Assembly (NCBI GenBank): GCA_016234445.1
Contig: JACRBT010000008.1
Coordinates: 9,109-73,108 of the forward strand
Reading direction: 5' to 3'
DNA length: 64,000 bases
From: Chloroflexota bacterium
GTDB lineage: Bacteria > Chloroflexota > Dehalococcoidia > Tepidiformales > Tepidiformaceae
This document shows, one piece after another, positions 32,419 through 58,487 of the stretch (position 1 is its first letter; every line of letters begins with the position of its first letter). The translations under genes were made by a program, and so were the position numbers. The notes below the pieces were generated by a model. It was not told the origin of the DNA and did no database searches. It saw only the letters and a list, made by a program, of their open reading frames with translations.

Positions 32419-32964
32419 TCAGTGTAGTGGTTCGGCGTTCGACGCCATCTCGCCCCCCCGGACCACGAACACGCGGCGGCATTCGCGGCCCTCCGCCATC
32501 GCACAGTGCGCCGGCGGCAGGGTGTCTTCGGCCAGCGGCAGCCCGAGCGCGTCGTGCCACCCCTGCACGCGGTCGAACACCGCGCAGTCGTAGCTCCCGG
32601 CGATCCCGGCCCGCTGGATGTTCTCCGCCACGAAGCAGCGGCTCACCGTCACCTCGTAGCTCCGTTCGTCGATGGCGCGCGTCGCCATCTCCATGAGCGG
32701 CGGCGCCACGTACAGTTGCCGGCCCGCCTCCAGGCAGTCGAGGAACTCCCCGACGCCAGAGACGGAGTCCTTGCCGAGCGCCCGCGCCAGCCGCCCGGTC
32801 TCCACCTGGCCGATCTCGCGGACGATCCGGCGGTTGAGCCGGTTCGCCGCCTCCATCCCGAACTCCCCGGCGACCGCGGCGAACCAGCGCGCGTCGTGGG
32901 AATACCACGTCTTCCGCAGCAGGTCCTCGCGTTCCCCGGGCGACAGCGTTCGCTCCCCGATCAT
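32419..32964 (-). CDS. Conserved hypothetical protein (operon partner of the TetR gene and ACAD)
   Basis: ATG 32964 overlaps the TetR stop (ATGA). 181 aa with several Cys (CLEAGR, SRCFVAEN, YDCAVFD, AHCAMAEGRECRR). No family could be assigned. Confidence 0.5.
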   Translation of the reverse strand: MIGERTLSPGEREDLLRKTWYSHDARWFAAVAGEFGMEAANRLNRRIVREIGQVETGRLARALGKDSVSGVGEFLDCLEAGRQLYVAPPLMEMATRAIDERSYEVTVSRCFVAENIQRAGIAGSYDCAVFDRVQGWHDALGLPLAEDTLPPAHCAMAEGRECRRVFVVRGGEMASNAEPLH

Positions 32965-33578
32965 CCCGAAACCTCCTTTGCGCGAATCGAGTCGAGGTAG
33001 AGCCTGCCCCATGCCTCTACCTTTTCGCGGTTGAGTTCGTCGTCCAGGCCAAGGTGGTGGACGAGGTCGAAGGTCAGGCCGATGGCCATGAAGTGCCACG
33101 CCGCGATCCGGGCGTCGATGTCGTCGCGGACCACCCCTGCCGCCTGGCCGGTCGCCAGCTGCCGTTCGAGCAGCCCGACGATGCCGGTGTAGTTCCCCGC
33201 GATCACCTCCCGGACCTCCGGGTCGGAGACGTCGCCGAGCGCCTGGAACCAGAGGCTGGCATAGGGCGCGCGCGTCTGGACGTGGTCGTAGTAGTCGAGG
33301 CCGACCTTCCAGGCCGCTTCGAGGGGGTCGCCGGACGTGGCCGCGGTGCCATTCCAGATCGCCTGGAGACGGGGACCGGCGTCCCGCAGCGCCGCGAGGT
33401 AGAGGTCGCGTTTGCTCGGGAAGTGGCGATAGATCGCCGAGGGCGCGACGCCCGCCGCCCGGGCGACGTCCTCCGCCCCCGCGTTGGCGTACCCCTCGGC
33501 GGCAAAGACCGCCTGCGCGCTCTCAAGGATCTCGCGCTTCCGTTCGTCCGCCGGCCGTTTCGCTGCTCGTTGCTTCAC
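32961..33578 (-). CDS. TetR/AcrR family transcriptional regulator
   Basis: The N-terminal HTH reads REILESAQAVFAAEGYANAGAEDVARAAGVAPSAIYRHFPSKRDLY. The start is GTG at 33578. Confidence 0.85.
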   Translation of the reverse strand: MKQRAAKRPADERKREILESAQAVFAAEGYANAGAEDVARAAGVAPSAIYRHFPSKRDLYLAALRDAGPRLQAIWNGTAATSGDPLEAAWKVGLDYYDHVQTRAPYASLWFQALGDVSDPEVREVIAGNYTGIVGLLERQLATGQAAGVVRDDIDARIAAWHFMAIGLTFDLVHHLGLDDELNREKVEAWGRLYLDSIRAKEVSG

Positions 33579-33585
33579 GTAGTGA

Positions 33586-33614
33586 ACAGTAATTCTCTAT
33601 TCTCTGCGTGTCAA
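33586..33614 (-). promoter_or_regulatory. Putative sigma-70-type promoter giving a leaderless or near-leaderless tetR transcript
   Basis: The minus strand reads TTGACA-17 nt-TACTGT, then 7 nt to the GTG start. It sits in a locally A/T-rich patch. Confidence 0.4.
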
Positions 33615-33640
33615 GGGCCGTGGTAGCGGCGGCCGTGCCT

Positions 33641-34078
33641 GGTAGCCGCGCCCGACCGTGGGCGCATCGCCGGGCGCACCGTTCGCCGTGCCACGACTGT
33701 GAAGGAGTGGTTCGTCGCCTGCCCACCATCTCCCGGGACTGGGCGCCAATGGCGCAGCGGCGCCGCCACCAGGGTGATGAGACCACCGCCGCCGCTCCTT
33801 CCCAGCGCGATCGGGCTGTGCCCGGTGTTGAGGGCAGGAACTCAGCGTTTGTTCCTTAGCAGTCGCGGTACGGATGGACGGCCCCGGCACGCAGGTAGCC
33901 GCGCCCCACCGGGGGCGCATCGCCGGGCGCACGGTTCGCCGTGCCACGACTGTGAAGGAGTGGTTCGTCGCCTGCCCGCCATCTATCGAGACCGGGAGCC
34001 AATGGCGCAGCGGCACCGCCACGAGGGCGATGGAGCCACCGACGCCGCTCCTTCCCAGTCGCGGTACGGACGGACGGC
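33641..34078 (+). repeat. Tandem duplication of a 165-nt structured intergenic element (possible ncRNA)
   Basis: Units 33641-33805 and 33894-34058 differ at 16 of 165 positions by hand alignment. A shared tail tcgcggtacgga(t/c)ggacgg occurs at 33862-33881 and 34059-34078. Unit 1 carries a 56-nt insertion containing the hairpin AGGAAC/GTTCCT. Confidence 0.7.
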
Positions 34079-34100
34079 GGGCGCGCCCCGCCCCCCTACC

Positions 34101-35768
34101 TCACCGCCAGGAGAACCCCTCCACCACGATCGCGCCGGTCGGGCAGGCGCCGAAACAGCGCCCGCAGCGGATGCACGCTTCGCCCTGGATCTGGTAGACC
34201 AGCACGTCGCCGATGCCCTCGATCTCGTGGACGTTGCCGCTTTCGTCGATCGCGACGCGCGAGATGCAGTCGGCGGGGCAGACGAGCGCGCAGGCCTGGC
34301 AGGCGGTGCACTTGTCGAAGATGACTTCCGGGACCAGCCCGCAGTAGAGGCAGCGGAGCCCTTCTGCCATCGCCGCGGCCTTCGTCAGAGGCGCCTCAAC
34401 CTCGTCGTCGAGCCCGAGGCCGTTCTTGCCGCCGCGCGCCCGGCGGACCTCGATCGAGGGTGCGCTCTCGACCGTCTGGAGCCCGGCGGGGTCGGATTCG
34501 GGCCAGCCGCCGTCCGGTGACCACGTCTCCCGGAGGTAGCGGTGGATCGCCTCGGCCGCGGTCTTCCCGTCGGCCACCGCCTCGATGATCGTCGAAGCCC
34601 CCCGGATGAAATCGCCGCCGGCGAAGACGCCCGGGACGGCGGTCATCATCGCCTCGTCCGTCTGCGGCGGCTTCTGGCCCAGGTTCGGGTCGACGCGCTC
34701 CGGGTCCGGCGCCTGCCCAAGCGCGAGGACCACCATGTCGGCTTCGAAGACGAATTCGCTCCCGGGGATCGGCACCGGCCGCGCCCGCCCCGACGAATCC
34801 TTCTCCCCCAGCCGGTTGCGGACGAACTCCATGCCCGCCGCCCGGCCGTCCGCCCCAGCCACGATCCGCATCGGCGAAACCAGGTACTCGATCCGGACAC
34901 CTTCGTGGAGGGTCTCGTCCAGCTCTTCGTCGTGGACCTCGGTCTCGCTCCGGGTGCGGCGGTAGAGCACAGTGACGGTCTCGGCGCCCAGGCGAAGGGC
35001 CGTCCGGGCGGCGTCCATCGCCGTGTAGCCGCCACCGATCACGGCAACGTGGCGGCCACACTCGGGGTGCCCACCAAGGTTCGCCTCCTCCAGGAACGGG
35101 AGCGCCTGGACCACGCCCGGGATGCGCGCGTTGAGGACGTCGAGGTCGTTCGGGCGCATCGCCCCGGCGGCGATGAAGACGGCGTGGTTGTCCCGCCGCA
35201 GCTGTTCCAGGGTCACGTCGGCGCCCACGCGGACGCCCGTCTTGATGGTCACGCCCAGCTCTTCGATGGCAGCGACGTCGCGGGCGATGGCGCCCTGGGC
35301 CAGCCGGAAGCGGGGCACGCCGAGCATCGCCATCCCGCCCGGTTCGGGCGCGGCTTCGAGGATGGTGACTTCGTGCCCGCGGAGTGCCAGCTCGTGCGCC
35401 GCGGAAAGCCCGGCCGGCCCCGCGCCGATGATCGCGACCCGGAGGCCGGTGGATGGCCCTGGCGCACCAGGCGCGGCGTGGTTCACGTAGCGGTCGCTGA
35501 GGAAGCGCTTCAGCTGGCGAATCCGGATGGGGCGGTCCATCTCCGCGCGGGTGCAGACGTCCTCGCAGGGGGCGCTGCAGGCCCGCCCGCAAATCGACGG
35601 CAGCGGGTTCGGCGCGCTGGCCGCCCGGAAGGCCTGTTCGAATCGGCCCTTCGCGGTGAGGGTGACATACGCCCGGGCGTCGGTGTGCACCGGGCAGGCG
35701 GCCTGGCAGGGGGCGGGATAGAGCTTCCCCCAGGCGGCGAGTTGTTCGTGGGCCTTGAGCTTCGGCAT
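34101..35768 (-). CDS. GltD-like NAD(P)H-dependent FAD oxidoreductase with N-terminal Fe-S region and C-terminal 2x[4Fe-4S] ferredoxin domain
   Basis: CQAACPVH..CGRACSAPCEDVC, dinucleotide folds VAIIGAGPAGLSAA and VAVIGGGYTAMDAA, and C-terminal CTACQACALVCP and CIRCGRCFGACP. ATG 35768. Confidence 0.8.
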   Translation of the reverse strand: MPKLKAHEQLAAWGKLYPAPCQAACPVHTDARAYVTLTAKGRFEQAFRAASAPNPLPSICGRACSAPCEDVCTRAEMDRPIRIRQLKRFLSDRYVNHAAPGAPGPSTGLRVAIIGAGPAGLSAAHELALRGHEVTILEAAPEPGGMAMLGVPRFRLAQGAIARDVAAIEELGVTIKTGVRVGADVTLEQLRRDNHAVFIAAGAMRPNDLDVLNARIPGVVQALPFLEEANLGGHPECGRHVAVIGGGYTAMDAARTALRLGAETVTVLYRRTRSETEVHDEELDETLHEGVRIEYLVSPMRIVAGADGRAAGMEFVRNRLGEKDSSGRARPVPIPGSEFVFEADMVVLALGQAPDPERVDPNLGQKPPQTDEAMMTAVPGVFAGGDFIRGASTIIEAVADGKTAAEAIHRYLRETWSPDGGWPESDPAGLQTVESAPSIEVRRARGGKNGLGLDDEVEAPLTKAAAMAEGLRCLYCGLVPEVIFDKCTACQACALVCPADCISRVAIDESGNVHEIEGIGDVLVYQIQGEACIRCGRCFGACPTGAIVVEGFSWR

Positions 35769-36173
35769 CGCGGCTGCCTCCATCCGCGGCACGCGCGACC
35801 ATCCCGGTCACGGGCTGCGCTGGGCGACAATCACCCCCGCCGCGCCCCCGCCGCTATGACGTAGATCACAGAGGGGCTCGCACCGGGGCGCTTGTGTCCA
35901 TCGTTCCCCGAAATGGGGGATACTGGTTCAAGCGCGCCAGCAACAGCTTGCCCGCCACGCCAACGCCGGTAGGCCAACGACGATGCCGAGAACCAAGAGA
36001 GCGAAAGCCACCGAGAGCCCCATCGCCCGCCGCCGCAAGAAGGGACGAAGGATCGCGGACGTCGTCGGGACGCTTCCGCCGCTCGACGTCCCGGTAGAGG
36101 AAATGGGCCGCATTGCCAGGGAAGACCGCATCCGCGAACTCCCCCGGATCGAGCCCTAAGGCGCCTGCTCAGC

Positions 36174-57380: not shown

Positions 57381-57613
57381 ATGCAAGCGTAGCTCATACA
57401 TGGGGAGCCGTCGGCTCCTTATGCAAGTCTGGCCAGTATATGGAGCCGTCCGGGGTTCCTTAGACAAGTCTGGCCACCACATGGAGCCGTCCGGGGTTCC
57501 TTAGGCAAGTCTGGCCCACTCCATGGAGCCGTCCGGGGTTCCTTAGGCAAGTCTGGCCACTCCGTGGAGCCGTCCGGGGTTCCTTAGGCAAGTCTGGCCA
57601 CTCCGTGGAGCCG
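57381..57613 (+). repeat. Tandem array of five 40-42-nt hairpin-containing repeats plus degenerate flanking partial units
   Basis: Units start at 57401, 57441, 57482, 57524 and 57565. The consensus is TGGAGCCGTCCGGGGTTCCTTAGGCAAGTCTGGCCACTCCG. A partial unit lies at 57381-57400 and a truncated one begins at 57606. Confidence 0.9.
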
Positions 57614-57646
57614 CCGTACGGATGGGCGGCGGACGGCATCTGACCC

Positions 57647-58393
57647 CTACTTCGCCTCTGGCGACGGTCCGGGGGGTGTGTCGAAGGTGATCCGGCGGAA
57701 GGCCTCGCCGAAGCTGACGCCGGTGGTGGCGGCGGCCCCCCAGCGCGCCATCTGCTCGGCGAACTCGGCAATCCCGGGGTCGAGCTGGCTCGGGTGCGCG
57801 AGGAGAGCCTGCTGCTTCAGGGCCAGGGTCTCGCCGATGTCGACCACGACGTTCGGCTCCGCGGTCGCGCCCATCCAGAGCTGCGCCACCCTGTGCGGCT
57901 GGAGGCCATCGACCAGGAGCTCCGGGAATGTCAACCGGTCGCGGGCGCTGGGGAAGATCGCGTCGAGGGTCGCGTCGCCGCAGGCCCGGTGGTCCGGGTG
58001 GTTCGGGTAGTTGTCGCCGAGGAAGCGCGCGGTCGGGTCGAACGTCATCACGACTTCCGGCCGGTGAGTCCGGATGAGGCGGGTGAGGTCGCGCCGGAGC
58101 TCGAGGGTGTGCTGGAGGTAGCCGTCTTCGTAGCCCATGAAGACGTAGTCGCGGACGCCGAGGATGGCCCCGGCGGCGCGCTGCTCGGCCTCGCGGATGG
58201 TGGTCAGGCGCGACGGCGTCATCTCCGGGTCCTCGCTGCCCTTGTCGCCCTTCGTGATGACGACGTAGGTGACGTGTGTTCCGGCGGCGGCCCACTTCGC
58301 CACCGTCCCGGCGACCATGAACTCGGCGTCGTCAGGGTGGGCGACGACGACCATCGCGGAGGCGGGAGTGGATGTGTCGACAACTGCTGGCAT
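57647..58393 (-). CDS. PIG-L/LmbE family deacetylase (second copy)
   Basis: ATG 58393 within ORF 57647..58468. Motifs are VVVAHPDDAEF, TKGDKGS and NHPDHRACG. Confidence 0.8.
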   Translation of the reverse strand: MPAVVDTSTPASAMVVVAHPDDAEFMVAGTVAKWAAAGTHVTYVVITKGDKGSEDPEMTPSRLTTIREAEQRAAGAILGVRDYVFMGYEDGYLQHTLELRRDLTRLIRTHRPEVVMTFDPTARFLGDNYPNHPDHRACGDATLDAIFPSARDRLTFPELLVDGLQPHRVAQLWMGATAEPNVVVDIGETLALKQQALLAHPSQLDPGIAEFAEQMARWGAAATTGVSFGEAFRRITFDTPPGPSPEAK

Positions 58394-58487
58394 GGGTGGC
58401 TCCGTGAGGTAGGGGCGAAGGTGAAGTGGGGGCTGACGCGATCCAGAGAGGCCCGGCGATGCGGCCACGGGGGGCCGCGGCTATCGG

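Follow-up and report, generated by a model that had tools for sequence, protein, structure and literature searches.

A repeat-filled spacer upstream of a tetR gene in an uncultured Chloroflexota bacterium, probably a cluster of short dispersed palindromic repeats

The REPs and BIMEs of enterobacteria and pseudomonads consist of REP/iREP pairs that carry a 5' GTAG and are mobilised by RAYT/TnpA-REP. In the REPIN-RAYT system, the RAYT is a single-copy Y1 HUH transposase of the IS200/IS605-like type with repeats on its flanks. To our knowledge, repeats of the REP/REPIN type have been characterised almost only in the Proteobacteria. The units of REPs, BIMEs and REPINs measure 35-40 nt and form REP/iREP pairs with a linker (PMC3479197, PMC3116915), and a GTAG at the foot of the hairpin is the feature that defines a REP (PMC3479197). 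REPINs are doublets with spacers of 71-110 nt, which are less conserved yet keep their hairpins, with compensatory changes (PMC3116915), and REPs have been described as singlets, doublets, tandem arrays and one element inserted within another (PMC3116915, Bertels and Rainey 2011).

The locus considered here belongs to an uncultured groundwater bacterium, an Anaerolineae-like member of the Chloroflexota, and was analysed within a single 64-kb stretch of its DNA, hereafter the window. It is a spacer between two minus-strand genes, as an earlier sequence-only reading had it, and its repeat cluster starts directly upstream of the tetR -35 box. We regard it as probable that short palindromic repeats, dispersed in the genome and of the REP/BIME (REPIN-like) kind, form a cluster in this spacer.

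32961-33578, minus strand: tetR gene.
33586..33614, minus strand: tetR promoter patch (TTGACA, 17 nt, TACTGT), identified from the sequence.
33615..34100, no strand: spacer filled with repeats, from the tetR -35 box to the gltD-like Fer4/FAD oxidoreductase gene, whose stop codon is at 34101; delimited by ORF and Pfam assignments.
34101-35792, minus strand: FAD/4Fe-4S oxidoreductase gene (gltD-like), 563 amino acids, assigned by Pfam.

The sequence-only reading had described two 165-nt units in this spacer, and both were recovered in a gap-free alignment with 16 differences, together with a 20-nt tail common to the two (33863-33882 and 34059-34078, one mismatch). The GAAGGAG...CTCCTTC pairing that it had noted is present in both units, and the closing pair of the 5' hairpin is indeed G.U in unit 1 (33654/33659) and C-G in unit 2 (33907/33912). 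The insertion in unit 1 with its AGGAAC/GTTCCT hairpin was also found, though with a length of 57 nt as opposed to the 56 nt given earlier. The description of a structured repeat element upstream of the tetR promoter was essentially right, but the 165-nt unit is not the element, as the true repeats are arms of ~33 nt and a GTAG-hairpin module. The units are non-autonomous mosaics of these smaller modules, each being composed of a GTAG-hairpin module, a ~33-nt core arm, a 75-nt private spacer and an inverted tail arm.

33641..33805, plus strand: unit 1 as defined in the earlier reading, found by repeat search and tetR-linked in Logan contigs L009 and L010.
33894..34058, plus strand: unit 2 as defined in the earlier reading, 90% identical to unit 1.
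33713..33790, no strand: private spacer of unit 1, between core and tail arms, containing 13 of the 16 differences.
33966..34040, no strand: private spacer of unit 2, at a depth of about 60, equal to two copies.
33806..33862, plus strand: 57-nt insertion of unit 1 with the AGGAAC/GTTCCT hairpin, defined by alignment, its edges being imperfect 10-nt direct repeats (TCCTTCCCAG / TCCTTAGCAG).

Copy number was estimated from the Logan contigs of three groundwater metagenome runs (X1-X3) that hold the organism; summed contig depth over-counts overlapping short contigs, hence all values are approximate and only 'tens of copies' is claimed for the abundant modules. In these contigs the 75-nt middle of the units, from core to tail, has the depth of two copies only and is thus private to the locus. 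Both private spacers were present at full depth (contigs covering 33695-33849 and 33948-34400), and unit 2 from 33948 onwards is contiguous with the oxidoreductase gene in public contigs. The 57-nt insertion is multi-copy, with a depth of 93 against 24 at 33818-33854, and a second contig carries a copy with four mismatches.

The arms flanking the private spacers are far more numerous:

33679..33712, plus strand: core arm 1 (CCGTTCGCCGTGCCACGACTGTGAAGGAGTGG), from a dispersed family of high copy number (X1 depth 579, baseline 24; nhmmer E=8e-10).
33932..33965, plus strand: core arm 2, a high-copy segment with sharp bounds (summed depth about 2200, single-copy level about 25; 41 contigs, of which 28 match at >=99% identity).
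33787..33805, minus strand: tail arm 1a, the truncated outer part CCGCCGCTCCTTCCCAG, interrupted by the 57-nt insertion (alignment).
33850..33882, minus strand: tail arm 1b, variant GTTCCTTAGCAGTCGCGGTACGGATGGACGG (nhmmer E=5e-8).
34041..34077, minus strand: tail arm 2, an inverted core copy (nhmmer E=7e-10; depth about 600 against 28; 17 contigs).

The core was in excess of baseline by 35-47x in all three runs, reaching about 90x at the X1 peak, and the tail stood at about 20x the single-copy level, with sharp edges to the high-copy segments at 33933-33965 (core, equivalent to 33680-33712 in unit 1) and 34041-34070 (tail). Long contigs bearing an arm show the organism's own depth (24-29 in X1, 7-8 in X2), and their left flanks are diverse and unique. 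The sequence-only reading had set against its own proposal the case that the unit might be a fragment of a known mobile element or pseudogene; in substance a case of this kind was found, the unit being a patchwork of repeats dispersed in the genome. A search with a core 28-mer gave no match among the genome contigs searched.

In the arm alignment the tail proves to be the core in inverted orientation, and 27 of 33 columns agree (core CCGTTCG-CCGTGCCACGACTGTGAAGGAGTGG against CCGTCCGTCCGTACCGCGACTGGGAAGGAGCGG, the reverse complement of the tail), with conserved outer ends CCRCTCCTTC...GAAGGAGYGG. The long-range GAAGGAG/CTCCTTC helix results from the pairing of a core arm with an inverted tail arm. 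The core is much more abundant and better conserved than the tail, and its internal stem is of 4 bp only, with no GTAG. Elsewhere the arms occur singly, in tandem or as inverted pairs at other spacings, including abutted arms (33965 joined to 34041), tail-10 nt-core, tail-18 nt-tail, core-core tandems, and a core followed after about 14 nt by tail-like sequence; the linkers in other copies measure 4, 10, 14 and 18 nt.

The second building block, the GTAG-hairpin module, was located by scanning the whole 64-kb window for perfect hairpins of >=6 bp that are preceded by GTAG. Five sites were found, three of them in this 480-nt spacer, where the outermost two point at each other:

33642..33671, plus strand: REP-like module of GTAG and GC-rich hairpin (GTAGCCGCGCCC-GACCGT-GGGCGCATCGCC), from the scan.
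33895..33924, plus strand: second copy of the GTAG-hairpin module, with a 7-bp stem and C-G closing pair, from the scan.
34072..34099, minus strand: inverted GTAG and hairpin (GTAGGGGGGCGGGGCGCGCCCGCC), immediately past the stop codon of the oxidoreductase gene.

The module recurs at 58455-58484 of the window (minus strand) and, at other loci, in contigs of 1504/1507/2631 nt and 205 nt. The repeat copies in the spacer and at 58455-58484 are extragenic. The 58455-58484 copy (ATAGCCGCGGCC-CCCC-GTGGCCGCATCGCC, minus strand) is located 4 nt past the stop codon of a gene ending ...FLEKREPDFSTF, and resembles a REP serving as a terminator-like hairpin.

A 41-nt tandem array was also observed at 57416-57650, every unit of which begins with GTTCCTTAGGCAAGTC, the same start as that of tail arm 1b (GTTCCTTAGCAGTC, 33851-33864). 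The sequence past its last unit (57596-57650) aligns with tail arm 2 and its flank (34043-34099) with a score of 44 (shuffles of a similar pair average about 25), and the array looks related to the same modular repeat family.

A protein search of genome contigs with the oxidoreductase retrieved one relative only, an Anaerolineaceae MAG (L001) with 88% amino acid identity. The gene order hrcA, grpE, dnaK, oxidoreductase, acyl-CoA dehydrogenase and CoA transferase is common to L001 and the window. In L001 the acyl-CoA dehydrogenase (93% amino acid identity) comes directly after the oxidoreductase with a gap of about 40 nt (window 32419-34100 against L001 5662-5704), and the syntenic site holds neither the repeats nor tetR nor the DUF6125 gene. 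By this sequence comparison, tetR, the DUF6125 gene and the repeat cluster constitute an apparent insertion or deletion relative to L001. At six tetR orthologue loci (L011-L016, 67-75% amino acid identity) no element was found upstream; the upstream regions are short and unrelated, and about 21 nt at the tetR promoter alone are conserved (33584-33604, 95% conserved in L012). Being absent from L001 and from the six tetR orthologue loci, the repeat cluster is lineage-specific.

The central 20-mer of the arm, CCACGACTGTGAAGGAGTGG, was found in JGI metagenome contigs in three distinct contexts. In L003 and L005 it abuts a hairpin whose inner stem is unlike that of the window (p about 0.007 each), and the similarity of their 5' arms to the window tail is not significant (p 0.08 and 0.5); this evidence hints that the repeat family extends beyond this genome. 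In the L002 group the 20-mer forms the ribosome-binding region of a truncated DNA methylase frame and has no partner arm, and it is probably there by chance or as a solitary arm. In these contigs (L002, L004, L006, L007 and L008) CCACGACTGTGAAGGAGTGG follows a promoter-like TTGACT/TAGAAT pair and precedes the ATG of a truncated, short N6/N4 DNA methylase frame (e.g. L004 3150-3300), with an intact methylase gene beyond it. Searches of plasmid, phage and viral contig collections gave no match, and no transposase was noted within the 64-kb window.

The sequence-only reading had proposed a duplicated plus-strand ncRNA gene, in which the two units would be tandem small RNA genes antisense to the flanking genes, with a fold kept by compensatory substitutions. 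The fold itself speaks to some extent for this, as the plus-strand consensus structure is preserved better than under random placement of the substitutions (p 0.003-0.007), and two double changes on the plus strand (33654/33659 and 33725/33740) retain pairing against one on the minus strand. When substitutions were placed within their own regions the plus-strand values became p 0.017-0.077, with 0.27-0.45 on the minus strand, and p ranged over 0.1-0.45 in all tests of the minus strand; much of the unstratified plus-strand signal results from the substitutions avoiding the arms. What is observed is a weak, real-looking preference for keeping the plus-strand hairpin. The compensatory changes fared less well, because at least two double changes arise in about 7% of random placements of the same 16 substitutions, a count within chance, and one of the two pairs falls in the part of unit 2 without public contig support. 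The G.U pair behind the plus-strand assignment was confirmed, but RNAalifold consensus energies are near equal on the two strands (-70.65 kcal/mol on the plus and -70.6 kcal/mol on the minus), so the assignment rests on that single pair. Minimum free energies on both strands were no better than those of dinucleotide shuffles (z +0.10, -0.58, 0.00 and -0.61), and the Rfam search that had been suggested matched no family in Rfam 15, the best hit being CcsR1 at 18 bits against a gathering score of 65.3. In the region a sigma-70-like promoter is lacking and the one terminator-like site is weak; no RNA run contains the stretch, relatives lack the element, and the conserved parts are exactly the genome-dispersed arms, the remainder being private to the locus. 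Small RNA genes are accordingly a highly improbable explanation. Close to excluded is also a remnant of a decayed protein-coding gene that was duplicated along with the adjacent sequence, such as a plus-strand ferredoxin-like CxxCxxWxxxCP segment read with a +1 shift. Plus-strand frames do give CHDCEG and WFVACP one base apart (33688-33724), and 18 nt of the unit are the complement of the 3' end of the adjacent gene, where Fer4 is encoded (34140-34157), but the ferredoxin-like motif is part of the high-copy core arm, and elsewhere that arm is found between unique flanks. Six-frame Pfam searches (E up to 0.01) gave no match, in none of the frames do third positions take an excess of the 16 differences, and GC at codon positions 1/2/3 is about 0.7/0.65/0.7 here against 0.7/0.47/0.9 in the neighbouring genes; the ferredoxin-like spacing was judged to be chance, and the earlier observation that no ORF has a plausible composition was borne out, with no coding signature in any frame.

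Three other candidates were rejected. A CRISPR array alternates direct repeats of 28-37 nt, at regular intervals, with unique spacers about as long, whereas the arms here are inverted and irregularly spaced, are found within 1.5-5.5-kb contigs or at their ends, and matched no CRISPR-DR model. Integron attC sites follow a cassette gene as an imperfect palindrome that has the core sites R'' RYYYAAC and R' GTTRRRY at its two ends; inspection of the gene-sense sequence of 33900-34100 showed neither at the arm ends. No tRNA, tmRNA or tRNA-like sequence was found in the region with ARAGORN.

The claim of a tandem duplication concerns one further feature:

33878..33893, no strand: 16-nt junction between the unit 1 tail and unit 2 (ACGGCCCCGGCACGCA), without public contig support.

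Both private spacers and their links to tetR and to the oxidoreductase gene are real, but their adjacency has no independent support. Contig depth is zero at 33878-33889 in X1-X3, sampled words of 33852-33935 occur in no indexed run, and X1 holds only 67% of the sampled words of the region. The unit 1 contig (33684-33877 in X2; 3.4-5.1 kb across runs) continues after 33877 as GGGCGCGTGCGCAGGGTCAGGACCGGCCGA where the window has ACGGCCCCGGCACGCA, identically in all three runs, and 33820-33877 forms the start of a 3.9-5.1-kb contig with one mismatch. The first 54 nt of unit 2 (33894-33947) are absent at this locus from all three public runs, and 33894-33930 were matched by one contig only, from another locus with both flanks unrelated. 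The discrepancy at 33877/33878 is either a structural variant or an assembly difference, and the adjacency is either specific to the assembled strain or a join across repeats. On such an account, which we judge possible but rather doubtful, the tandem arrangement would be an assembly join or a one-strain variant, and unit 1 by tetR and the core-spacer-tail by the oxidoreductase would commonly be two dispersed copies several kilobases apart. Against a join, the flanks are syntenic neighbours in L001 (dnaK, oxidoreductase, acyl-CoA dehydrogenase, CoA transferase), so that the contig is no gross chimera; Logan contigs use 31-letter words and may take wrong turns at repeats; and an assembler cannot invent a 16-nt junction, which must therefore exist in some reads. 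Two further readings concern the nature of the family itself. A MITE family, in which the ~33-nt arms would be terminal inverted repeats for the DDE transposase of a parent IS and the window would hold two adjacent copies, would account for the inverted arms with their conserved outer ends and for the L003 and L005 contigs, where the same 20-mer abuts a hairpin with a different inner stem. It is nevertheless unlikely, as the copies have no common internal sequence or fixed length, some arms stand alone between unique flanks and others in direct tandem, no target-site duplication surrounds the elements of the window, L003 or L005, and plasmid and phage records gave no match. Quite improbable is an undescribed hairpin-guided mobile or recombinogenic family of Chloroflexota and other groundwater or soil bacteria, whose core arm (a variable hairpin, then the invariant CACGACTGTGAAGGAGTGG) would bracket variable gene cassettes; we count in its favour that the 20-mer abuts different hairpins in the two unrelated JGI contigs, that the tetR-DUF6125 pair between repeats is missing in a close relative, and that the public runs show another arrangement past the unit 1 tail.

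Beyond 33877, the public tetR-linked unit 1 contig was seen to extend 3-5 kb into sequence not present in the window. Its first letters, read on the minus strand, resemble the end of another gene (...GGTCCTGA).

The reading that we prefer, a cluster of REP/BIME-like repeats, would recognise two building blocks in the spacer, the ~33-nt arm in both orientations (core and tail) and the GTAG-hairpin module. A core and an inverted tail separated by a poorly conserved 75-nt spacer would form a long imperfect hairpin, and a segment of about 196 nt containing one such doublet would be present twice in the window. The two copies would have come to differ later, through 16 substitutions and a further repeat module that was inserted into one of them, and the helices of the sequence-only reading would be the inverted-repeat arms of a DNA family. 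The modules may have spread as hairpin-forming single-stranded DNA through a trans-acting tyrosine transposase of the RAYT/IS200 type, and arms recombining or slipping against each other may have enlarged the cluster. Once in place, the hairpins may incidentally terminate or stabilise transcripts of the oxidoreductase gene and shield the tetR promoter. That the hairpin is weakly preserved from one copy to the other is in keeping with compensatory changes reported for REPIN spacers (PMC3116915). Two observations count against simple membership: the core arm alone, in contrast to a classical REP, makes no convincing palindrome, and the inequality of core and tail in abundance and conservation is not predicted by a symmetric doublet model.

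The spacer is thus probably filled with ordinary repeat DNA of a kind already known, in an unusual host, and not with a new RNA gene. For annotation, it indicates that long 'structured' intergenic duplications in high-GC MAGs can be clusters of dispersed palindromic repeats, in which helices and apparent compensatory changes are properties of a DNA family and not of an RNA gene, and that assemblies spanning such clusters need checking. A clear REP/REPIN-type family with a sharply conserved 30-nt core in an Anaerolineae-like genome would widen the known range of these repeats and offer a handle for finding the enzyme that spreads them. Close relatives also differ in gene content at the point where the cluster lies, in keeping with a role of repeats as recombination substrates.

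Amongst known repeat systems, minisatellites or VNTRs such as the mycobacterial MIRU resemble the locus in having head-to-tail copies, here two with a period of 196-253 nt in one intergenic spacer, but the period here is made of genome-dispersed modules and the adjacency of the copies lacks independent support. Bacterial MITEs, such as Correia of Neisseria and RUP of Streptococcus pneumoniae, are likewise short, non-coding and intergenic, with terminal inverted repeats and possible transcript hairpins, but here there is neither a target-site duplication nor a uniform internal sequence or length, and solitary arms are common. The likeness to REPINs is closer and includes two inverted conserved arms of ~25-33 nt, a less conserved spacer of about 71-110 nt with its hairpin potential kept (here with 13 of the 16 differences in the spacer, and none of them breaking a pair of the consensus structure), compensatory changes in that spacer (here in a number within chance), and occurrence as singlets, doublets, ordered tandem arrays and element-in-element insertions. 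It differs in that the spacer here is private to the locus, whereas REPIN spacers are common to a near-identical population, and in that the two arm types are unequal in abundance and conservation. As for the REP/BIME class, the most abundant module here, the core arm, lacks a clear stem-loop and a GTAG, and the host is an uncultured member of the Chloroflexota; in common with it, the locus has modules of 30-40 nt in tens of copies (an approximate figure, from contig depth), inverted pairs with a linker (here of 27/33 identity and with 75-nt linkers), mosaic clusters, a GTAG at the foot of a GC-rich hairpin (33642, 33895 and, on the minus strand, 34099), and a position just past stop codons.
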